Program-made: the position numbers and the translations under genes
Assembly: GCA_048938295.1 (NCBI GenBank)
Contig: JBHLMI010000027.1
Location: 4,650 to 35,426, forward strand
Direction: 5' to 3'
DNA: 30,777 nucleotides
Source: Promethearchaeota archaeon
GTDB taxonomy: Archaea; Asgardarchaeota; Hermodarchaeia; Hermodarchaeales; Hermodarchaeaceae
The notes under the pieces: generated by a model
Databases searched by the model: none
Told to the model about the DNA's origin: nothing
What the model saw: only the letters and a program-made list of their open reading frames with translations
Shown here: piece after piece, positions 859 through 30,777 of the stretch
Position numbering within the stretch: the first letter of the stretch is position 1
Layout of the letters: each line of letters opens with the position of its first letter

Positions 859-993
859 TGGTGGGCCGGCCGCGATTTGAACGCGGGATCACCTGAAAGG
901 GGACTACTACACCAAATAGTAGTCACGCCCCAGGCAGGCATCATACCAATCTAGCCAAAGGCAGCTGCCAGTCGGGATCTAGACCACCGGCCC
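859..993 (-). tRNA. tRNA-Pro(GGG) with two BHB introns. Exons 993-977, 948-926, 895-859; introns 976-949 (28 nt, 17/17a) and 925-896 (30 nt, 39/40)
   Basis: The spliced sequence GGGCCGGTGGTCTAGAT/TGGTATGATGCCTGCCTGGGGCG/CAGGTGATCCCGCGTTCAAATCGCGGCCGGCCCACCA folds as a cloverleaf with anticodon stem CCTGC/GCAGG, loop CT-GGG-GC and encoded CCA. Confidence 0.92.
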
Positions 994-7418: not shown

Positions 7419-8513
7419 GTGAAAATTATTGCAAAGCGCTTGAAATTGGGTAAAATAGTCGTTGTCCCCGAAGATATCGATGACTTATGGCATTTATACA
7501 ACGTAATTCTCCCAGGTGATCAAGTCGCAGCCCGAACAGTTAGACGCGTGCGTCGTGATTTCGGTGACACATCCCGCCCAGACAAAGGTGAACGTCGACC
7601 GATGTTCATTCGCCTCACCGTCGAAGAGGTCTCCTTACATAAGTACTCAAATCGTCTCCGAGTGAAAGGAAAAATCCTGGAAGGCCCAGATGATTTCGTA
7701 TCAACCGGAAGCTATCATACAATTAACATCGAACCAGGTCTCAAAATTGAAATCATCAAAGAAAGATGGCCAAATCTCCTCCTGAAACGGTTACAAGATG
7801 CTGTTTCGCGGAAGGGTCAACGTCTAATTATTGTCGCGGTGGAAGAAGATCAGGCTTCGATCGGCGTCATTGATGATTCAGGGATTGATGTTCGCGTTGA
7901 AATCCATGGGACTGCCCGGGGAAAATATGGTAAATACGTCCAAGCAGCTGAAACAACGGATCAAATGTTCGCAGGCGTCGCCACCCAACTCCAAGAACTC
8001 ATAAAGCGACTACCAGAGAATACGCGAATAGTGTTAGTTGGACCAGGATCAACAAAGGAGAAACTTGCTGAATACCTGAAAAACAAAGTCCCTGCAAGTA
8101 AAGGACGTCTCCTCATAGAACATGTTAGCACTGGGACTGTTGCAGGGATTTATGAGGCGTTAAACCGGGGAATCGTTGAAAGGATTGCCAGCGAAATTCG
8201 ACTTAACCAGGAAATCCGTCTTATGGACGAGGTAATGACGAATCTTGGAAAAGATACAGGAAAAGCAGCATATGGTTGGGAAGCTATCATCCGTGCAGTC
8301 CAGTTTGGTGCGGTTGAAACACTCCTTGTTCTTGATAAACTGTTCCGTGAGGCTGAACCCGATGATCGGCGAGAATTAGAAAATATCATGCGACAGGTGG
8401 AAAAACAAGCAGGCTCAATTGAACTCTTCAGTGCTGATCATCAAGCGGGAAAACAACTTGAAGGTCTAGGGGGACTCGTTGCACTTCTTCGCTTCCGTTT
8501 ACCTGACTCCTAG
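7419..8513 (+). CDS. pelA: mRNA surveillance protein Pelota (Dom34)
   Basis: PEDIDDLWHLYNVI, RLRVKGKI, GSYHTINI and GGLVALLRF. GTG 7419 preferred as start. Confidence 0.95.
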   Translation: MKIIAKRLKLGKIVVVPEDIDDLWHLYNVILPGDQVAARTVRRVRRDFGDTSRPDKGERRPMFIRLTVEEVSLHKYSNRLRVKGKILEGPDDFVSTGSYHTINIEPGLKIEIIKERWPNLLLKRLQDAVSRKGQRLIIVAVEEDQASIGVIDDSGIDVRVEIHGTARGKYGKYVQAAETTDQMFAGVATQLQELIKRLPENTRIVLVGPGSTKEKLAEYLKNKVPASKGRLLIEHVSTGTVAGIYEALNRGIVERIASEIRLNQEIRLMDEVMTNLGKDTGKAAYGWEAIIRAVQFGAVETLLVLDKLFREAEPDDRRELENIMRQVEKQAGSIELFSADHQAGKQLEGLGGLVALLRFRLPDS

Positions 8514-9595
8514 AGTGGAAAATATGAAACCTGAAACCGAGTATCAATAGGGTACTCTTCCACAATTCCCACGCTCAATCCCTTTGCCTTCAGCCGCTTT
8601 GCTAAACAGCGAGTTATAGAAGCTGCAGTTTCAATTCGGCCTTTGACCTCATTCACCCATATATGCTTACGCTCAACTTGGAATTCCTTTTCTAATAGTT
8701 CCTTAATGGCTGTCAAACCTAGCTCCTCTGAGGGTGTGATGACACCCTTGACCAACAGCCCCTCCTTTGAAATCCGTTCAAAAGGTTTAGCAATGCTTCT
8801 CGCCCGGCGTTTGAAGCGATTTCGCAATTGTGCTCCATCCTTGAGCCCTAGCGGACAATAATGGATACTTAGAGAGGTCTCTTTCGCCGCCCACTCGAGA
8901 AGTTCTATTGCTTCAGCTTCACTGTCTTGTACTGCTGCAATCGTTCCCGACTCTAACTTGAAACCTCTTTTCCGTAATTGCTGGGCATTGCCAGAGGTGA
9001 ATTCCATCTCGTTGAGATTAATGAAATCAATTCCGATCTCATCCAGTTGTCGGAACAGTTCCTTAAGCGAATCACGCATCCCAGGGATGACTGGGATTTC
9101 TAATCCCAGCTTTGCCCGACCTTTTGTCAATCTCCGCAATTTGCGGTAATCTTCTCCAATCTTGAACCGATGGAGTCGCACCTCATCAAGGCCTGCATCT
9201 AAGAGCTGTTCAACTACGTCAAAGGGAACGGGTTCAAGCCCAGTATACAAATGGATGTGAAAGGACTCTCCCCCTCTACTTTTTACTGCCCGAATGAACT
9301 CGAGTGTCCGGCCTAATTCTTGCAACGGTTCTCCGCCAGTAATACCCATTCCCATGGCTCTACTCAACTGCGCTTCAGCGATTATGTCCTCGATAGCAGT
9401 TACTTCAACCTCGTTGGCGAAAATTACTTTCTGGTTATACCGTTCTTCAGATATTGGACAATAATAACAATCCTTTGAACACTCACCGGTGACAAAGAGG
9501 ACTAGTTTTTCACCTCTCATGCAAAGCTTACAGCCCTTTGAAAGGTGTCCAACGTAGGGGGAATTCCCTCGCGAAAGGTGGATCTCTCGTGTCAT
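8510..9595 (-). CDS. Radical SAM protein (archaeal, uncharacterised)
   Basis: CSKDCYYC (CxxxCxxC), extra GCKLC, ITGGEP and FINLNEME. Confidence 0.88.
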   Translation of the reverse strand: MTREIHLSRGNSPYVGHLSKGCKLCMRGEKLVLFVTGECSKDCYYCPISEERYNQKVIFANEVEVTAIEDIIAEAQLSRAMGMGITGGEPLQELGRTLEFIRAVKSRGGESFHIHLYTGLEPVPFDVVEQLLDAGLDEVRLHRFKIGEDYRKLRRLTKGRAKLGLEIPVIPGMRDSLKELFRQLDEIGIDFINLNEMEFTSGNAQQLRKRGFKLESGTIAAVQDSEAEAIELLEWAAKETSLSIHYCPLGLKDGAQLRNRFKRRARSIAKPFERISKEGLLVKGVITPSEELGLTAIKELLEKEFQVERKHIWVNEVKGRIETAASITRCLAKRLKAKGLSVGIVEEYPIDTRFQVSYFPL

Positions 9596-23393: not shown

Positions 23394-24491
23394 GTGAACA
23401 GCCTTCCACCTAGCGTAATAAAGATTGCACAGCATACCCAAGAAGTGCTAACCATAGAGGACTTAGTTGCTGCCTTTGCACGGCAAGAAAAACCTCGTGG
23501 ATATATTGGTGTTGAACCCAGTGGATTATTTCATGTGGGATGGCTCGGGTGGGTCCAAAAGCTCAATGAACTGGTGGATATGGGTGTGCGCATGGAAATT
23601 CTCCTCGCTACTTGGCATGCTCAAGTAAACGACAAATTTGGAGGCAGTATTGAAAAAATTAGACGTTGTGCTGAATACCTACGTCACTGCTTTGTCGCAT
23701 TAAAAGTAGATACTACCAAAGTACACATCATAACCGCAGAAGACTTAATGCGTCGCCTTGAATACTGGGAAAGAATTCTGCGAGTGGCCAAGAATCTCAC
23801 TCTCGCTCGAGTACGCCGATCGACTGACATAATGGGTCGAACTGAGGAGGAAGCCGCTATTGACTTCTCTAAGCTCATCTATCCGCTCTTACAGGTAACG
23901 GATATCATAGATCAACAATACCAAATCTGTCTTTCTGGGATGGATCAGCGTCGTGCACATGTGCTAGCCCGCGAAGTGGCCGATAAGATGAAACTAGGGT
24001 GGAAACCTATAGGCATTCATATGCCCCTTCTTCTCGGGCTCACTGGAGCTGCTCGGATGGACGTCTCCTCCGAGTTCACAGCGCAAGACTTGTCTATAGA
24101 AATCAAGATGTCAAAATCAAAACCTGGCGATGCCATTTTCATTCATGACCCGCCTCGAGTAATCAGAAGGAAAATCAAGAATGCTTACTGTCCTGCAGGA
24201 GAAGTGGAAAATAATCCAATACTCAATTACGTTCGAAATATCCTGTTTATGCAAGATGGCTATACTCTACACATAGAGCGAGCCGAGAAATATGGTGGGC
24301 CATTAAGTCTTACGAGCGCTGATGAACTCGAATCACTGTATGCTGCAGGAGCCATTCATCCATTGGATTTGAAAGAGGCAGCAGCTAAGGCTCTTTGCGA
24401 TTTTCTTGAACCGATAAGGAAATACTTCGAAGATAATCCTGAGGCAAAGAAACTCTATGAAGAAATCACGGAATTCCAGGTAACCCGATAA
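23394..24491 (+). CDS. tyrS: Tyrosyl-tRNA synthetase
   Basis: YIGVEPSG, HIGH-like HVGW, YPLLQVTD, GMDQRRAH and KMSKS. GTG 23394 preferred, with tttatat about 40 nt upstream. Confidence 0.93.
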   Translation: MNSLPPSVIKIAQHTQEVLTIEDLVAAFARQEKPRGYIGVEPSGLFHVGWLGWVQKLNELVDMGVRMEILLATWHAQVNDKFGGSIEKIRRCAEYLRHCFVALKVDTTKVHIITAEDLMRRLEYWERILRVAKNLTLARVRRSTDIMGRTEEEAAIDFSKLIYPLLQVTDIIDQQYQICLSGMDQRRAHVLAREVADKMKLGWKPIGIHMPLLLGLTGAARMDVSSEFTAQDLSIEIKMSKSKPGDAIFIHDPPRVIRRKIKNAYCPAGEVENNPILNYVRNILFMQDGYTLHIERAEKYGGPLSLTSADELESLYAAGAIHPLDLKEAAAKALCDFLEPIRKYFEDNPEAKKLYEEITEFQVTR

Positions 24492-24500
24492 ATCCTGAGG

Positions 24501-25364
24501 TTACCTGCTGTTTAGTTGGATATCAAGAACGAAGTGATTGTACCTAGGATTATAGGTCTTTATCATTCGTGTATTAACAAGCTTCACTTGTCGCTTCATC
24601 GTCAATGCCATCTTCTGTAATTGTGAAAGCAGCTTTGATTCCATATCTTCTTTAGGACCAATTTCATGGATGTGCATCATACCTCCAGAACGAAGGCATT
24701 GTATTCCTTGTTCGAGATACTGACTAGTGCCTTGAATTAAACCCATGATGACCCGATCTGCTTGGCCTTTGCCTATTCGTGGGGCGAGTTGACGGGCATC
24801 TCCAAAATGTGGCTGGATCAATTGGGAGACATTGTTTGATTGGATGTTTTGTTCAAGATAATGGAAGGCATCAGGGTTCCACTCAATTGCATGAATGGCT
24901 TTGGGTTTTGCGTGCACAGCCATGGGAAGAGATAGGTACCCTATCCCGGCAAACATGTCAATGACAAACTCATCAGTTCCCAGCCTGCTCATGCGTAGCC
25001 GTTCTGCCTTATTTCCAAAGGAAAACATGACTTTCACTGGATCTAAATGGAAAATCACTTTGTTTTCTCGAAAGACTGTCTCAGTTTCAGGTGATCCAGC
25101 AATCAATTCCACTGAAGGTTTCCGGTAGGGACCCGTAATTGCAGCTGTTCGCCGTAGGACGGATCGAATTTTAGTACTATATCCTAGCGTAGCGTCTCCA
25201 ATCAACTCCTTGTATTGCACAATTAGTGGGTCTAGCCACAAGATGGCTACATGGCCCAGTATTCGAAGCCGTCGAGGTAGGAGTCCAGGAGGTATCTGGT
25301 CTCCCAGCTGGGTTTTGAGGAAGTGATAGAAAGTTGTGCGGTGCCGATGGGTTATTTTCTTCAC
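24501..25364 (-). CDS. Met-10+/Trm5-TYW2 family SAM-dependent transferase, probably Taw2
   Basis: MFSFGNKAER, DMFAGIGY, EWNP, GD, DRVIMG and HIHE. Confidence 0.8.
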   Translation of the reverse strand: MKKITHRHRTTFYHFLKTQLGDQIPPGLLPRRLRILGHVAILWLDPLIVQYKELIGDATLGYSTKIRSVLRRTAAITGPYRKPSVELIAGSPETETVFRENKVIFHLDPVKVMFSFGNKAERLRMSRLGTDEFVIDMFAGIGYLSLPMAVHAKPKAIHAIEWNPDAFHYLEQNIQSNNVSQLIQPHFGDARQLAPRIGKGQADRVIMGLIQGTSQYLEQGIQCLRSGGMMHIHEIGPKEDMESKLLSQLQKMALTMKRQVKLVNTRMIKTYNPRYNHFVLDIQLNSR

Positions 25365-25744
25365 CTGAATGATTATAATCTAAAGAAGTGATGGGTCGCT
25401 TCTGCTCTGCTGACCGATACACTAACGCCCCATCATCATCGGTGGGCAGAGCGCCTTTATTCCTCCGACGGGTCCTCTCTTAATATGTCGGGCATTATGA
25501 GCCTATGCGACCCGGCGTTGAAGTGTGGACATCGTGGGTTGCCCCCGCAGTCACCTCATGACGACACGTCATAAATCATGCAGGAGCCTGTCACATGCCG
25601 CATAACCCTCAACGCTGCTCCAGTGTTGCCACAAATTTGCACGAATCATCATCAGATTGTAGTCTTCGGATTCGTCCTCGTTGGTGGCTATTATCCTTTC
25701 ATTGCCTACAAACAAACGTAAACGGTTCCTCAAAAAAGCTTCCA

Positions 25745-26239
25745 CTATTGACTTGGAACACCATGGTAGATAATCCGTCCATCTCGATCAATCTGCCCCG
25801 CTCGGATGCGTGTGGATGAAATTGAGATCTGGTCTTCCGCTTTAACCATGGTCAGAACGGCGATGTGTAAAAGAGACAGCTTGTACTCGCGGCGTATTTC
25901 ATTGATTTCTTTTGCGACTGGGCAAGTTTCTTCACTGACAACAATCAGTTCGAGCTCCGGCATCGTGATGGCAGGTCCGTATTTGTTGTGAAGTGGTCGA
26001 ATAATATAACGTCCACTATACCCTTCGCTTTCTAACCATTTTTCTAGTTCCTCTTTGCGCTCGTCATAACTGGCGATTATTTCCCAATCAGGCTTATGCA
26101 TGACCATATCCTGTGTGGTTAACCCAATAAGCACCTGCTTGCCCAACTCGAAGGCCCTGCGAAGTAGTGTTTTGTGTCCCTTATGTAGACGGTCGAAGGT
26201 TCCACCGATGGCTGCCCATTCATATGGCACTTCAGACAC
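25745..26239 (-). CDS. coaD: Phosphopantetheine adenylyltransferase (archaeal)
   Basis: GGTFDRLHKGH, GLTT, IVVSEET and ISSTRIR. The start is uncertain (GTG 26239 or TTG 26317). Confidence 0.88.
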   Translation of the reverse strand: MSEVPYEWAAIGGTFDRLHKGHKTLLRRAFELGKQVLIGLTTQDMVMHKPDWEIIASYDERKEELEKWLESEGYSGRYIIRPLHNKYGPAITMPELELIVVSEETCPVAKEINEIRREYKLSLLHIAVLTMVKAEDQISISSTRIRAGQIDRDGRIIYHGVPSQ

Positions 26240-26319
26240 GATGCAGTCCTCATGTCTTGCTTTTATATTCTGTTGAAAAAGCTTTACCACAAGCCAAAAT
26301 TTGATTGCTGATGGCAATG

Positions 26320-27423
26320 CTACCCGATGCCGATGGTGTTGCCGATGCCTGCGATGATGATGGTGTCACCCTTCGTTGTCCGCAAACGGACTGCATTTTT
26401 CATCCGTTCAACAGCTTTAGGAACTGCGTCAACGAGAGATTTCTTCATCGGTGCAAGCGCATCTTCTAATGACTCTTTGATGACAATCGCGTCGATGGGG
26501 ATTTTGTACTTGACAGCAGGATCCTCCATCTTGAATTTCTCAGGTCCTGGATCGCCAATTGCGGCACCAACGCCTTCAATCACTTGTCCAGTGTCTTCCC
26601 CTTCAAGTTTTAGTCCGGCATCAACGGTGATGATACGGGCAATTTTTCCTTTTTTGCGTTCAACTACTTTCTTTATGCCCTCACCGGGCTTACCAACTTG
26701 GCTTCCGAATCCCTTTGCACGGACAAACCATAAGGTCCGTCCTTCAAATTCACCGGAAAAAGCAACCGTGTGTTCTGCAATTTCTTCGGGCTCTCCTGCC
26801 TTGATTTCTCGAGCGAAGTGAGTAACTGCAAGGGGACCCATGCCATCACCTATGGGTTTGCCATCGGCAAAAGCGCGGGTAGCCTCAAAGTACGCTTTAG
26901 CCATCTGAATAATCATGGGTAATTGCATCTGAAGCTGCATAGTATAGTAGATGCTTTTGGTCTTCTTACCCAAAAGCAAGAAATGACGGACAACCCGATA
27001 CACGTAATGAAGGGACATAGCTCCTGAAAGCACAGCTTCGGCGTTTGCCTGTTGTTCTGGGGTAGCCTTTGGGATGACCCGTGCAACATGCTCCTCATAC
27101 CGTGTTGTTCTGACATCAAGGACATGCTCCAATCGCTGCAATACACCCGCCGGGTCCAGGTTGACAGGTTCAATGATGAAAAATTCCATGAAATCATCGA
27201 CGGTTGACTTGAGGTCTTTTTCTTCAATCTTCAAATCCTTGAAGGTCTTGGTGGCAATATTCTTGCCCTGTGTTGCTAAGACTTCAAGCTGTCTCAAGCC
27301 CGCTTCTGCTTGTCGCTGCCAAATGTAGGATTGTAGTCTGGTTCCATACAGATAGATGAACATGAAAAAGACCAGAAAGATGATCTGGAAAATCCAATTG
27401 AAATCAGCAAATTGCAACATCAT
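26320..27423 (-). CDS. DUF1512 family protein
   Basis: N-terminal TM, FFIIEPVNLDP, GxPIGDGMGP, DAGLKLEGE and IAGIGNTIGIG. Confidence 0.85.
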   Translation of the reverse strand: MMLQFADFNWIFQIIFLVFFMFIYLYGTRLQSYIWQRQAEAGLRQLEVLATQGKNIATKTFKDLKIEEKDLKSTVDDFMEFFIIEPVNLDPAGVLQRLEHVLDVRTTRYEEHVARVIPKATPEQQANAEAVLSGAMSLHYVYRVVRHFLLLGKKTKSIYYTMQLQMQLPMIIQMAKAYFEATRAFADGKPIGDGMGPLAVTHFAREIKAGEPEEIAEHTVAFSGEFEGRTLWFVRAKGFGSQVGKPGEGIKKVVERKKGKIARIITVDAGLKLEGEDTGQVIEGVGAAIGDPGPEKFKMEDPAVKYKIPIDAIVIKESLEDALAPMKKSLVDAVPKAVERMKNAVRLRTTKGDTIIIAGIGNTIGIG

Positions 27424-27700: not shown

Positions 27701-27836
27701 TGGTGGGCCGGCCGAGATTCGAACTCGGGACCACGAGGTCCCAAACCTTGCGAGAAAAACAGAACCCGTTTTCCTTCTCGCATCATACCGCTCTAGTCCA
27801 GCACATATTGTAACTGGATAACTAGACTACCGGCCC
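27701..27836 (-). tRNA. tRNA-Pro(TGG) with two BHB introns. Exons 27836-27820, 27790-27777, 27746-27701; introns 27819-27791 (29 nt, 17/17a) and 27776-27747 (30 nt, 30/31)
   Basis: Spliced GGGCCGGTAGTCTAGTT/CGGTATGATGCGAG/GTTTGGGACCTCGTGGTC...CCGGCCCACCA; anticodon stem CGAGG/CCTCG. Confidence 0.92.
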
Positions 27837-27930
27837 GATGCGCGTAAAGGAACAGACGGGTACTTGATAAATCTTATCTAGAAACTTCTTGCTACAATCT
27901 ACTTTCAATTATACCAGGGTCTCTGCAGAA

Positions 27931-27949
27931 AATAAAACCCGGTTTTATT
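27931..27949. repeat. Inverted repeat AATAAAAC-CCG-GTTTTATT, candidate subterminal hairpin of the tnpB2 element
   Basis: Perfect 8-bp inverted repeat about 70 nt upstream of tnpB2. Confidence 0.35.
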
Positions 27950-28017
27950 ATTTTCTACCTGAGTGATGCATTGTGGCTCTATTCGAAAGACAACCGAATT
28001 GGACTAAAGCACATCTT

Positions 28018-29349
28018 ATGAAAACAGATTTCATAACGCGAACGGTATGGTCACGTTTACCGAATATATCTAAAAATTTAGTCAGAAAATTGCGTCGTAT
28101 ATACACAAGAGCAATTAATGTTTTTTTGATTGACTTAGAAGAAAACAAAGGAAGCATCAAAGAAACTTATCACGAACTTCGTAACAATGAATAGTTTTCA
28201 AAATTATCCGCGAAAATGCTTAACCAAGCATCACAGGAAGCATTTGTTTGGTTTAATTTAAGACGAAAGGAGAGAGTTCTAACAGATCAAGAAATACAGA
28301 ATTGGACAAAATGGGCAAAGAAACAAGGCATTGCGAATTTTGATCCCTCACAAAGTCTTCCAAGATTAATTTCTCACTCCGATTATCTTAAAGGACGGCC
28401 AGGAAAAAAACACGGTCAATGGCCGCAGACAGCAATTGATGGTGCACGGTTTTACATTGATTCAATTACGAATAATATTCTAGTGTCAATCGATAAAGTT
28501 GCTAAGAGAACCCAGGTTGTAATTGGTGGAGAACCTGAAAAGCTTCTTCGCCAAGCAATTTCTGGTATACTATCACTGAAAATCGGTTCTTCACGGCTTC
28601 TTGTCAAAGACGGAGTTACACAAATGGCTACTCCTATCCGAGTATCTGTTAATATTCCAGATATTTCAAGCCTTGAACAGCCAACGCTGATAGGTGTGGA
28701 TCTAGGACTAAATACATTAGCTGCTGTGGTTGCGCTAACTTTTGATCGAAGGATCCACCCAGCCAAATCGATCTCTGGAAAACAACTCAAACACCGTTTA
28801 GCATCACTTTGGGCAAAACGAAAAAACGCCGCACGCAAACAAAAATCAGAAAGTATACAAGATATCGATGAAAAGACACAACGAGTAATCCAATATTGGA
28901 TTCATGTGACAGCAAAAGCAGTAATTAACTATGCAAGTCAGTTCCCACATCCAATAATCGTTCTAGAAGATCTTCGAAATTATATTCCAACGAAAAAGCG
29001 AACTCGATGGGCAAGTTCCTCAATGAGAGACCAGCTTAGTAAATGGGCGCGGGGAAGACTCTTTGAAGCAATTTGTATGAAAGCTAGTCTACGTAATTTA
29101 CCTGTAATCAGAGTCAATGCAGCATATTCTTCTCACGTCTGCCCTAGACAATGTCTTTGTCTTCTACCTCAAGGATATTTCGAAGTGTTTCACTGTCCTG
29201 CATGTGGCGCAAAAGTTCCACGAGACATTAGTGCAGCTACTGAAATTGCACGTCGTGGTCTTCATCAGGTTACAGACAATAAAGTGCAGAACTCTAAGGT
29301 TCTTGGCAACGAGAACACATCATCCTTGACCCAATCAGCGGCAGGATGA
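28018..29349 (+). pseudogene. tnpB: TnpB/Cas12f-like nuclease (tnpB2), 443 codons, with in-frame TAG at codon 59 (28192-28194)
   Basis: ORF-track 27973-28194 and 28216-29349 are in the same frame, separated only by TAG. N-terminus MKTDFITRT...YTRAIN; RuvC IGVDLG, VLED, RDISAA; zinc finger CPRQC...CPAC. Confidence 0.7.
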
Positions 29350-29350
29350 T

Positions 29351-29503
29351 CGGGGCTATGGAAAGGGCCCTGAATAGGAGCGGTTAAGACCGTTAAGTAG
29401 TAAATTCTCTTGCTTGGCAAGGGAATTAGTGTAAAGGCATGGATAACCTTCGGCACCGGTCCTCCAAATTGGTATGGAGATTCAATGGCAATCACATTGA
29501 AAC
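29351..29503 (+). ncRNA. Candidate omega-RNA/tracr-like scaffold downstream of tnpB2
   Basis: Five consecutive hairpins directly after the stop, ending in ATTGAAAC. Confidence 0.45.
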
Positions 29504-29668
29504 TCAGATACACACTTTCGGGTATGATGCGAGCAAACAAAACCAGAAATAACTCTGTAGAAAGAAATCTATGGAAAAATACAGACCGAACTAGACTACC
29601 GGTCCAGTTCCCGAAAGGGTACAATCGGAAGTTCAAAAACCTTTGTCCAATTTAGGTGTTCCGATAGG

Positions 29669-30316
29669 TCATGCTTCAGTTAATCTACTGATGGGGAACC
29701 GGATGTAGTAGTAAGGTTTTCCATCTGTGTAATTGACTCTTGGGGATCTCGAAATGATATCGAAATGTTTCTTTAAAAGGCGAACAAGTTCCTTCAGAAA
29801 ATTCTTATCGCGCTGTTTTAACTGAACCCGTTTTCTCGTTAAGGAACCATCCGTGTCAATCAAACCAAACATGTAATGTTTGAAAAGAAATGGATCTTTT
29901 GCAATCAAGGAGGGTACCCTCATATTTTGTTTCTTCCCAGATTGAAAGCCCAATTTATTGAAGAAGAAGTAAGCTGCTGCACGCTGGATGTTTATGGCAT
30001 AGCAGTTCTTCTTTCTCTTATCTCGCAGAACACGCGGTTGAAAATCAAAGAGGTCCTTGACTAGCACCGATAATTGTTTTAGGTAATTTTTCCGACCAAC
30101 AACCTTTACTCGATAATGATAACCGCCTTTCCTTCGTTGGCACTTATTCAGGTTGCCATCACCCGCAACAACACCAGCAAAATATGCAACCTTATCACTA
30201 ATTTCCGGAATTTTTGTCTTTGATTTTTTGGTGCAGATGAAATCCTTCTGAATCCTGTGCCAAACACCTGCTTCATCTAAAGCCTGTGAAATTGAATGTA
30301 TTTTGACACCCTTCAT
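29669..30316 (-). CDS. Free-standing double-motif LAGLIDADG endonuclease-like protein (about 215 aa)
   Basis: YFAGVVAGDGNL and YMFGLIDTDGSL motifs; basic. ATG 30316 is used because the ORF-track start lies within tRNA-Thr. No intein or intron flanks were seen. Confidence 0.8.
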   Translation of the reverse strand: MKGVKIHSISQALDEAGVWHRIQKDFICTKKSKTKIPEISDKVAYFAGVVAGDGNLNKCQRRKGGYHYRVKVVGRKNYLKQLSVLVKDLFDFQPRVLRDKRKKNCYAINIQRAAAYFFFNKLGFQSGKKQNMRVPSLIAKDPFLFKHYMFGLIDTDGSLTRKRVQLKQRDKNFLKELVRLLKKHFDIISRSPRVNYTDGKPYYYIRFPISRLTEA

Positions 30317-30619: not shown

Positions 30620-30730
30620 TGGTGCGGGGGCCGGGCTTCGAACCCGGGAACTCCTACGAGACAGGATCTTAAGTCCTGCGCCTTTGACCAAGCTTGGCTG
30701 TGGGGTCTACGAATGGGTAGATACCCCCGC
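30620..30730 (-). tRNA. tRNA-Leu(TAA) with a 23-nt BHB intron at 8/9 (30722-30700)
   Basis: Spliced GCGGGGGT/AGCCAAGCTTGGTCAAAGGCGCAGGACTTAAGATCCTG...CCCCCGCACCA. Strict BHB: GGGG/CCCC helix, bulges GTA and ACA, stem TCTAC/GTAGA. Confidence 0.9.
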
Positions 30731-30777
30731 GGCTTAGTCTTCGGGACGCTGACCCTTGGACAGGTCCCCCGCACAGC

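Follow-up and report, generated by a model that had tools for sequence, protein, structure and literature searches.

Downstream of a tnpB gene in this Asgard archaeon, a member of the Hermodarchaeia, lies a 21-nt segment that resembles, on the minus strand, the beginning of a proline tRNA without its intron, and the question raised by the locus is how such a sequence came to stand there. The preliminary description of the window, i.e. the whole stretch of 30,777 nucleotides that was analysed, had proposed two answers. Either the segment is a guide with which TnpB2 cuts intron-less tRNA-Pro genes and spares those bearing introns, or it is the relic 5' fragment of an intron-less tRNA-Pro and forms a direct repeat around the tnpB2 islet. 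In both cases it would record an allele that preceded the introns. Comparison with related genomes and metagenome loci allowed us to weigh the two answers, and it directed attention to another segment, closer to tnpB2, as the predicted guide.

The orphan segment and the tRNA gene that it matches

The features of the locus are as follows, in the coordinates of the window.

27701..27836, minus strand: functional tRNA-Pro(UGG) gene, made up of exons 1-3 and two introns
27820-27836, minus strand: exon 1
27791-27819, minus strand: intron 1, 29 nt, at site 17/18
27777-27790, minus strand: exon 2
27747-27776, minus strand: intron 2, 30 nt, at site 31/32
27701-27746, minus strand: exon 3
27837..27902, minus strand: new promoter and leader of the functional tRNA-Pro, with the box TAGATAAGATTTATCAAG at plus-strand 27863-27880; always linked to the two-intron allele
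27903..28017, plus strand: left end of the IS itself; from TTTCAATTAT on it is homologous to the left end of T3, a paralogous element
28018..29349, plus strand: tnpB2 ORF (Cas12f1-like TNB / OrfB_IS605), with an in-frame TAG at 28192-28194
29345..29520, plus strand: TnpB2 omega-RNA scaffold, ending in ...ACACTTTCG; covarying pairs with T3, L026 and L064, end motif also in L091, L092 and L095
29521..29540, plus strand: predicted omega-RNA guide slot, GGTATGATGCGAGCAAACAA, directly 3' of the conserved scaffold end
29534..29580, plus strand: spacer between guide slot and orphan; sequence and length (47-57 nt) vary between lineages, and it cannot be aligned in L090
29581..29584, minus strand: remains of tRNA nt 22-25, decayed here to ACAG on the plus strand, where sister lineages have TCAT
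29585..29605, minus strand: orphan, nt 1-21 of tRNA-Pro(UGG) in its ancestral, intron-less form, carrying G3A; adjoins the ancestral promoter as in class A relatives
29631..29644, minus strand: ancestral tRNA-Pro promoter-like box, AAAGGTTTTTGAAC; at the same distance upstream in G011, G013 and G014, as a variant in G002
29669..30316, minus strand: free-standing LAGLIDADG ORF; host flank, outside the cassette and syntenic with and without it

The orphan segment, GGACCGGTAGTCTAGTTCGGT, is the minus-strand reading of the window from 29605 to 29585. As reference we used the start of mature tRNA-Pro(UGG), GGGCCGGTAGTCTAGTTCGGT, which was taken from the intron-less orthologues of relatives, whose genes open with GGGCCGGTAGTCTAGTTCGGTATGATGCGAGGTTTGGG, and not inferred by splicing. 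Against nt 1-21 of this reference the orphan matches at 20 of 21 positions, the sole change being G3A, and it continues unbroken across the 17/18 D-loop intron site. The functional gene, by comparison, is contiguous only over nt 1-17 (16/17 against the orphan), as CGGT comes after the intron. The preliminary description had reported both the 20/21 complementarity across the D-loop splice junction and the poorer, intron-interrupted match of 16/17 to the genomic gene; the former is confirmed with the intron-less genes of relatives and the latter on exon 1. The orphan 21-mer occurs a single time in the window at up to three mismatches, and none of 100 dinucleotide shuffles of the window contained a match to it at that threshold.

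No tRNA-Pro(UGG) other than the gene at 27701-27836 was found in the genome, and this gene lies in direct orientation to the orphan, both being read on the minus strand (the gene from 27836 to 27701). When folded, its precursor forms bulge-helix-bulge-like helices with three-base bulges at both introns. The tRNA genes of this genome are intron-rich. A recent copy from tRNA-Pro(GGG), which has an intron at a similar site in the D-loop, was considered as a source of intron 1 and rejected, the two sequences differing except at the ends that pair with the D-stem.

Cassette-free relatives and the spread of the cassette

tnpB2 is missing from four genomes of this genus (G002, G011, G013 and G014), and in these the homology to the right side of the window begins at about 29582. 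Read in the sense of the tRNA, all four have the LAGLIDADG ORF, the old box, about 25-30 nt, an intact tRNA-Pro(UGG) and then 5S rRNA; the tRNA-Pro gene is intron-less in G002, G011 and G014, and that of G013 has one intron elsewhere. In the window, the LAGLIDADG ORF and the old box are followed by nt 1-21 only; next come 1.75 kb of different sequence and, behind it, the two-intron gene and 5S rRNA. The promoter-like box, to which the preliminary description had pointed at 29644-29631 on the minus strand, is present and conserved upstream of the tRNA-Pro of relatives, where it has the form CAAAGGTTTTTCAAC at an equal distance. Because an intact tRNA-Pro stands behind the same box and LAGLIDADG ORF in the genomes without tnpB2, the orphan can be recognised as the orphaned 5' end of the ancestral gene. 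Very probably it is the stranded beginning of the intron-less tRNA-Pro(UGG) that was resident here (21 nt, originally about 25), left with its old promoter attached after replacement by a cassette. The second of the two earlier answers, that of a relic framing the tnpB2 islet and recording a pre-intron allele, is in this way borne out by synteny with the four empty-site genomes. In addition, a contig from the same sediment samples, in which 27748 is joined through CGCATCAT to 29585, represents a co-occurring relative whose allele has neither cassette nor intron.

The comparison of homologous loci that had been suggested as a check showed that the match is retained, with equivalent orphans in L055, L058/59, L090 and G006:C36. 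In most cassette-bearing sister lineages the orphan reaches nt 25 (...GGTATGA), and the changes that it has accumulated are specific to lineages: G3A and altered nt 22-25 here, C5T in L055, T21C in L058 and a truncation at nt 19 in L090. In G001 a deletion of 28009-30261 has removed the orphan altogether, and the working tRNA-Pro gene was kept. Within the orphan, 14 bases (29587-29600) are invariant across lineages, which we ascribe to gene conversion with exon 1 or to its serving as a homology arm; a function of this core is possible. Most likely, however, the orphan has no function beyond that of a recombination arm. All sequences compared are metagenome assemblies, in which joins through the conserved 5S and tRNA sequences may be chimeric; an assembly artefact is less likely here, because many independent assemblies show the arrangement and, in G000 and G010, it is embedded in host DNA on either side.

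The cassette between the orphan and the rest of the gene is about 1.8 kb long and contains, in the sense of the tRNA, the variable spacer, the guide slot, the omega-RNA scaffold and tnpB2 in antisense, the new promoter, exon 1, intron 1, exon 2 and intron 2. It then joins the resident exon 3, and the tRNA-Pro(UGG) gene, which is single and essential, is in this way reconstituted with two new introns. Both borders of the cassette consist of tRNA-Pro sequence, nt 1-25 on one side and nt 32-74 on the other. The two-intron allele was found together with the new promoter in G000, G001, G005, G006, G008, G010, L055-59 and L090, and remnants of the IS left end precede the new box in all of them except G010, which diverges just upstream of the new promoter. 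Intron 1 is present neither in the orphan nor in the ancestral allele, both introns are limited to cassette-linked alleles, and a two-intron allele with the ancestral box was never found among the genomes and metagenome loci compared.

Sequence identity changes at the tRNA. Between G000 and G006, compared on a single contig, the host genes (23400-27400) are 61-80% identical, with dS saturated in all four genes tested, whereas from the tRNA onward the identity is 84-94% and tnpB2 has a dS of 0.24 and a dN/dS of 0.19. A similar switch, located within tRNA-Pro, is seen in G005:C12, whose host side is 87-99% identical to the intron-less sister G002 and about 72% identical to G000, whereas on the cassette side it shares 79-93% identity with G000 and none of the sequence is related to G002. 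In a tree of two housekeeping proteins the allele classes are interleaved, with G005 and G002 forming one pair and G010 and G013 another (support of 1.0 for each). The old promoter next to the orphan is G013-like in the window and in L058/59 and G002-like in L090; the joining of the orphan to two types of host promoter is the mark of independent insertions, each recipient background retaining its own promoter and the first 19-25 nt as a scar. These comparisons show horizontal transfer of the cassette, which seems to have entered tRNA-Pro at one and the same place in several related Asgard archaea; we interpret the block as a replacement cassette that is site-specific and spreads horizontally. 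Behind the orphan, the G006 lineage has another promoter of the new type and a solo left end of about 190 nt, which can have arisen from unequal crossing-over between the direct repeats or from a second entry into an earlier intron-less version.

We also asked whether the block could be the product of ordinary IS200/IS605 transposition. This does not explain it, because no TnpA was found in the genome and the block includes non-IS DNA on both sides. The search, in a genome that is 91.6% complete, returned neither a TnpA-type (Y1) transposase nor a serine recombinase. The cassette is, moreover, flanked by a 25-nt direct repeat and its guide slot is internal and conserved; the tRNA match of the slot is in sense while the cassette is antisense, which does not correspond to a canonical TnpA insertion. 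Inversion or fold-back starting from a canonical sense insertion in the D-loop was considered and set aside, as it gave no model with fewer steps than the acquisition of the cassette as a block. Neither blastn nor tblastn detected further copies of the element in the genome, so that its ends are not definable within it.

TnpB2, its predicted guide and the competing readings

The product of tnpB2, a TnpB protein with RuvC and zinc-finger (TNB) domains, matches PF07282 (4.8e-11) and, more weakly, PF01385 and PF22126, and the D, E and D columns of its RuvC domain are invariant in the alignment. In the window, the ORF is interrupted by the TAG at 28192-28194, which is a Trp codon in the orthologues; contigs with zero mismatches support the TAG, and a TGG variant exists in a co-occurring strain. 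Because of this premature stop, the TnpB2 system is probably inactive in this genome. In G006, L058 and L090 the ORF is intact, and among species tnpB2 has a dN/dS of 0.19-0.32; tnpB2 and the guide slot are under purifying selection.

The 3' end of the omega-RNA was placed at 29520 by homology, using as alignment set the 52% identical paralogue T3 (G006:C36, G010:C22), L026 and L064 (31-37%), and L091, L092 and L095 (46-50%). Homology among the scaffolds stops at a shared ...ACTTTYC plus one base, i.e. at 29520, and beyond this point the sequence is specific to each clade. For T3 the boundary is independently backed by an empty site, the scaffold being followed by the last 14 nt of tRNA-Thr(GGU) and its native trailer. 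In ISDra2, the guide consists of about 16 nt directly 3' of the RNA that stems from the element's right end (PMC8612924). The preliminary description had stated that the orphan could not be the guide if the RNA bound by TnpB2 ended near 29503-29525, and the end predicted by homology lies within this range.

Directly behind the scaffold, the first 13 nt of the predicted guide slot are identical, in sense, to nt 19-31 of tRNA-Pro, and if one extra G is allowed for the match extends back to nt 16. Besides the gene itself, this is the only 13-nt match to tRNA-Pro in the genome. Exon 2 of the rebuilt gene consists of a C and exactly these 13 nt, so that the two introns bracket the match: intron 1 alters the bases just upstream of it (AGTTC to AGAGC) and intron 2 begins right after it. 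Conservation of the slot is high, with nt 1-18 identical in four lineages and all 20 nt identical in the window, L058 and L090; the G006 lineage (L055, G006:C36) has a G at position 19. Scaffold end and first 18 nt of the slot together (29514-29538) form the longest invariant run of the region in the four lineages, one of which has a TnpB2 of 76% identity and a spacer that cannot be aligned. Our findings suggest that the guide of TnpB2 is probably the segment at 29521-29540, and not the orphan.

The 5-7 invariant nt that follow the 13-nt match (CAAACAA) correspond to nothing. A full-length target of the 20-nt slot was found only in the cassettes themselves among 19 genomes of the order and 400 Asgard genomes, the remaining hits being at the chance level of the control pattern; a match in G012 was discarded as a target, since it lies within a coding region. 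A search for the origin of the spacer returned no match elsewhere, and the idea that the spacer or intron 1 are relics of intron 2 or of IS ends was dropped, as local alignments were no better than those of shuffled sequences. Nor is there a general link between TnpB and tRNA genes: tnpB2 alone among the 12 TnpB loci of the genome has tRNA matches downstream, and the other TnpB homologues (46-53% identity) have non-tRNA guides.

These observations bear on the readings that compete with that of a stranded 5' end. Were the orphan the 3' guide of the TnpB2 omega-RNA, it would direct cutting of the antisense strand of intron-less tRNA-Pro adjacent to ...CATCAT, and the match would be interrupted after 4-8 nt by the D-loop intron. 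The orphan lies on the strand of tnpB2, directly after the last base common to all copies of the cassette, its counterpart in the empty sites is preceded by GCATCAT, and its core is conserved across lineages, all of which would suit a guide. Nevertheless, we consider this very unlikely: homology of the scaffold to six related elements stops 60-64 nt upstream of the orphan, the spacer in between is variable over 47-57 nt and unalignable in L090 and hence not scaffold, and the position of the guide is taken by another segment that is far better conserved. Furthermore, variation within the orphan is greatest in what would be the seed (plus strand 29581-29588), which reads ACAGACCG, TCATACCG, TCATGCCG and CTCGTCGA. 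With the scaffold ending at 29520, a variable spacer behind it and the TAM-proximal end least conserved, the first of the two earlier answers is not supported as far as the orphan is concerned. Hardly credible, in our view, is a present role of the orphan as a functional 5' half from which tRNA-Pro is assembled by trans-splicing (a split tRNA), or as an antisense regulator of tnpB2 and its omega-RNA, driven by the old promoter. The retained promoter-like box, the conserved core and the fact that a transcript of the orphan would run antisense into the omega-RNA could be cited in its favour, but an intact tRNA-Pro(UGG) gene lies 1.75 kb away, the acceptor stem is broken by G3A here and by C5T in L055, and the 3' end of the orphan differs by lineage (nt 19, 21 or 25). 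Neither a partner 3' half nor a trailer able to form a bulge-helix-bulge was found, and G001 deleted the orphan and kept the tRNA gene.

A further reading accepts the direct repeat and explains it in another way, as an attL/attR pair that resulted from integration of a plasmid- or virus-like element at the 5' end of tRNA-Pro (intron-bearing attP recombining with intron-less attB, as in Sugahara et al. 2012), the integrase and most of the element having been lost afterwards and tnpB2 being a passenger IS. The architecture is that of the Caldiarchaeum tRNA-Thr(GGU) locus (PMC3293823), the 25-nt direct repeat is that of a tRNA terminus, and transposition of IS200/IS605 elements makes no target duplication (PMC8612924). 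Such an origin is unlikely, albeit less so than the two just discussed. The insert, which encodes TnpB only, consists of the IS, 66 nt of promoter and leader and 64 nt of guide slot and spacer and leaves no room for the remnant of an integrase, neighbouring ORFs contain no integrase-like domain in any variant, and the same minimal, integrase-less cassette recurs in several host backgrounds. In addition, a tRNA-Pro sequence in the guide slot would be superfluous for a passenger IS.

If the orphan is instead the stranded 5' end of a gene replaced by a cassette, the spread of this cassette may be pictured as follows. It would enter intron-less alleles by recombination, with nt 1-25 and nt 32-74 of the tRNA serving as homology arms. 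TnpB2, loaded with the RNA of the guide slot, would recognise intron-less tRNA-Pro by the D-loop motif (AGTTC) and nt 19-31, its cut would fall towards the far end of the match, and the break would be repaired from a cassette-bearing copy via the tRNA arms. The rebuilt gene would be spared, as intron 1 replaces AGTTC and intron 2 ends the match after 13 nt. In this scheme, the part of TnpB2 as driver by RNA-guided cutting, its TAM and the immunity provided by the introns are what we infer; the comparisons themselves establish that the orphan is a relic, that empty sites exist, where the cassette is bounded, that the introns are linked to it and that it has spread horizontally to one site. The idea of an RNA-guided homing of tRNA introns, as put forward in the preliminary description, is not supported with the orphan as guide, but gains indirect support from the guide slot at 29521-29540 and the site-specific horizontal spread. 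It is possible, although we would not call it probable, that TnpB2 with its built-in tRNA guide acts as a natural RNA-guided gene drive that spreads bulge-helix-bulge introns between Asgard species and leaves the rebuilt gene immune, with T3 at tRNA-Thr(GGU) as a second case. The predicted guide of T3 equals the 3' end of unaltered tRNA-Thr(GGU), and the resident gene differs from it at guide positions 3 and 5, with compensating changes on the partner strand.

Relation to known systems and to the origin of tRNA introns

The closest precedent is the tRNA-Thr(GGU) locus of Caldiarchaeum subterraneum, where a 5' fragment of nt 1-27 is separated by an insert of 1,868 bp from a rebuilt gene that has gained one more intron, at 24/25 (Sugahara et al. 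2012, PLoS One, PMC3293823). Both loci have an orphan 5' fragment (nt 1-27 there, nt 1-25 here) about 1.8 kb upstream of a rebuilt gene with more introns, in both the insert is missing from other members of the population or genus, and the interpretation is in both cases that a mobile element led to the gain of introns. The Caldiarchaeum insert contains an unclassified putative recombinase and a repeated region of 545 bp, and integrase-mediated att recombination was proposed for it (PMC3293823). The locus described here differs in its TnpB/omega-RNA cargo, in the tRNA sequence at the position of the guide, in the arrival of two introns together, in its Asgard host and in a spread across species that is visible in dS contrasts. 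New are thus the TnpB cargo with a carried guide matching the tRNA, the two introns bracketing this match and the measurable interspecies spread.

The locus also resembles the TnpB/omega-RNA homing of IS200/IS605 elements (Karvelis et al. 2021, PMC8612924; Meers et al. 2023, bioRxiv 10.1101/2023.03.14.532601), with a TnpB carrying the RuvC residues, a structured RNA at the 3' side and a short guide behind it. The proposed logic is also the same, i.e. cutting of the element-free allele and repair from the element-bearing copy. In canonical IS200/IS605 elements, however, the guide is the flank of the right end and no duplication is formed, whereas here the cassette itself contains the guide, which is conserved across species, a direct repeat of 25 nt flanks it, the cassette includes host promoter, exons and introns, and no TnpA was found in the genome. 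IStrons (Tourasse et al. 2014, PMC4227781; Zedaveinyte et al. 2023, bioRxiv 10.1101/2023.11.20.567912) are elements of the IS200/IS605 type fused to group I introns, and they share with our cassette the combination of a TnpB element and an intron by which the insertion spares the host gene. IStrons self-splice as ribozymes and the whole element is the intron, whereas our element is located outside the rebuilt gene, whose short introns are of the archaeal bulge-helix-bulge type and spliced by proteins. Type V-K CRISPR-associated transposons (bioRxiv 10.1101/2021.02.06.429022) likewise possess a dedicated, conserved guide to a tRNA gene, but they insert downstream of the tRNA and use Tn7-like proteins and a nuclease-dead Cas12k, in contrast to the nuclease-type TnpB and the replaced 5' part of the tRNA seen here.

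The origin and purpose of archaeal tRNA introns at odd positions is a long-standing question, and an old proposal holds that tRNA introns derive from mobile elements and shield tRNA genes against them. The present locus provides a before-and-after series within one genus, consisting of intron-less genes, two-intron rebuilds and the old 5' end as a scar, and it places in the insert an RNA-guided nuclease with a conserved guide slot to which the small exon flanked by the new introns corresponds. With a few cloned parts, namely TnpB2 of an intact orthologue, its RNA and the two tRNA alleles, the proposal becomes testable. The locus would also provide an example of a TnpB element that carries its own guide rather than reading its flank and, if the gene-drive reading is true, direct evidence that tRNA introns arise from mobile elements and protect against them.

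The interrupted tnpB2 and the TnpB complement of the genome

We found an in-frame TAG in tnpB2 (window 28192-28194) at a position where the orthologues encode Trp (TGG). The stop codon is backed by zero-mismatch contigs from the source samples, with TGG present at this position in a co-occurring strain, and tnpB2 is a recent pseudogene in G000, the genome to which the window belongs. The whole G000 genome (assembly 91.6% complete) contains 12 TnpB (TNB-domain) loci, and a search of the same assembly found neither a Y1 transposase (PF01797) nor a serine recombinase (PF00239).

Introns and tnpB genes at other tRNA loci

Window ~859-993, minus strand: tRNA-Pro(GGG)
G000 C32:68490-70013, C50:22682-23207, C50:84213-85200 and C64:13777-14987: long-intron tRNA genes proposed by ARAGORN
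Window 30701-30777 = G000:C19:1-77: 77 identical bases at the window's right end, shared with contig C19

The tRNA-Pro(GGG) gene also has an intron at a D-loop site (after GGTCTAG), together with a second intron near the anticodon; its D-loop intron and that of tRNA-Pro(UGG) have only their ends in common (ATCC..., ...CTAGA). The introns in the ARAGORN proposals on C32, C50 and C64 measure 432-1430 nt, and none of these proposals overlaps a TnpB match; they may be false positives or, alternatively, tRNA genes interrupted by large inserts.

The tRNA cluster at the window's right end carries on in C19, where tRNA-Leu(UAA) is separated from an intron-rich tRNA by another, inserted tnpB (minus strand, ~200-1500); tRNA-Thr(GGU), Tyr and Asp follow. 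The site of this tnpB is empty in the related genome G006.

The T3 element beside tRNA-Thr(GGU)

L049 (G006:C36) 7785-9520 and L050 (G010:C22): T3 element, compared with G000:C19:1828-1904

T3 encodes a paralogue of TnpB2 (52% identical) and is located immediately 3' of tRNA-Thr(GGU). The sequence right after its scaffold, CGCCCGAGGCTCCA, equals the 3' terminus of tRNA-Thr genes of the common type, and the resident tRNA-Thr(GGU) carries CGGCTGAGGCTCCA, which mismatches the T3 guide at positions 3 and 5. This resident gene also has compensating changes at 6:67 (acceptor) and 49:65 (T-stem). The altered type, whose T-arm is similar to that of tRNA-Thr(UGU), is also present without T3 in G003 and G005.

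Variants of the cassette at tRNA-Pro(UGG) and its flank

Window 29669-30316, minus strand: free-standing two-motif LAGLIDADG ORF between tRNA-Thr(UGU) and tRNA-Pro
L069 (G001:C19) 1240-1260: deletion in G001, equivalent to window 28009-30261
L034/L049 (G006:C36) 215-1010 and L055 4128-4300: right-end variants in the G006 lineage

The LAGLIDADG ORF belongs to the host flank, outside the cassette, because it is syntenic (72-77% DNA identity) in genomes with an intron-less tRNA-Pro. A clean deletion in G001 has taken out tnpB2, its predicted guide slot and the stranded tRNA-Pro fragment (orphan), together with the old promoter and the greater part of this ORF; the two-intron tRNA-Pro is retained despite the deletion. 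In some strains of the G006 lineage, the right end of the element has a ~700-bp insertion at its tip. In this lineage the new promoter occurs a second time after the orphan, together with ~190 nt of a solo left end, evidence that the cassette site has seen tandem or repeated events.
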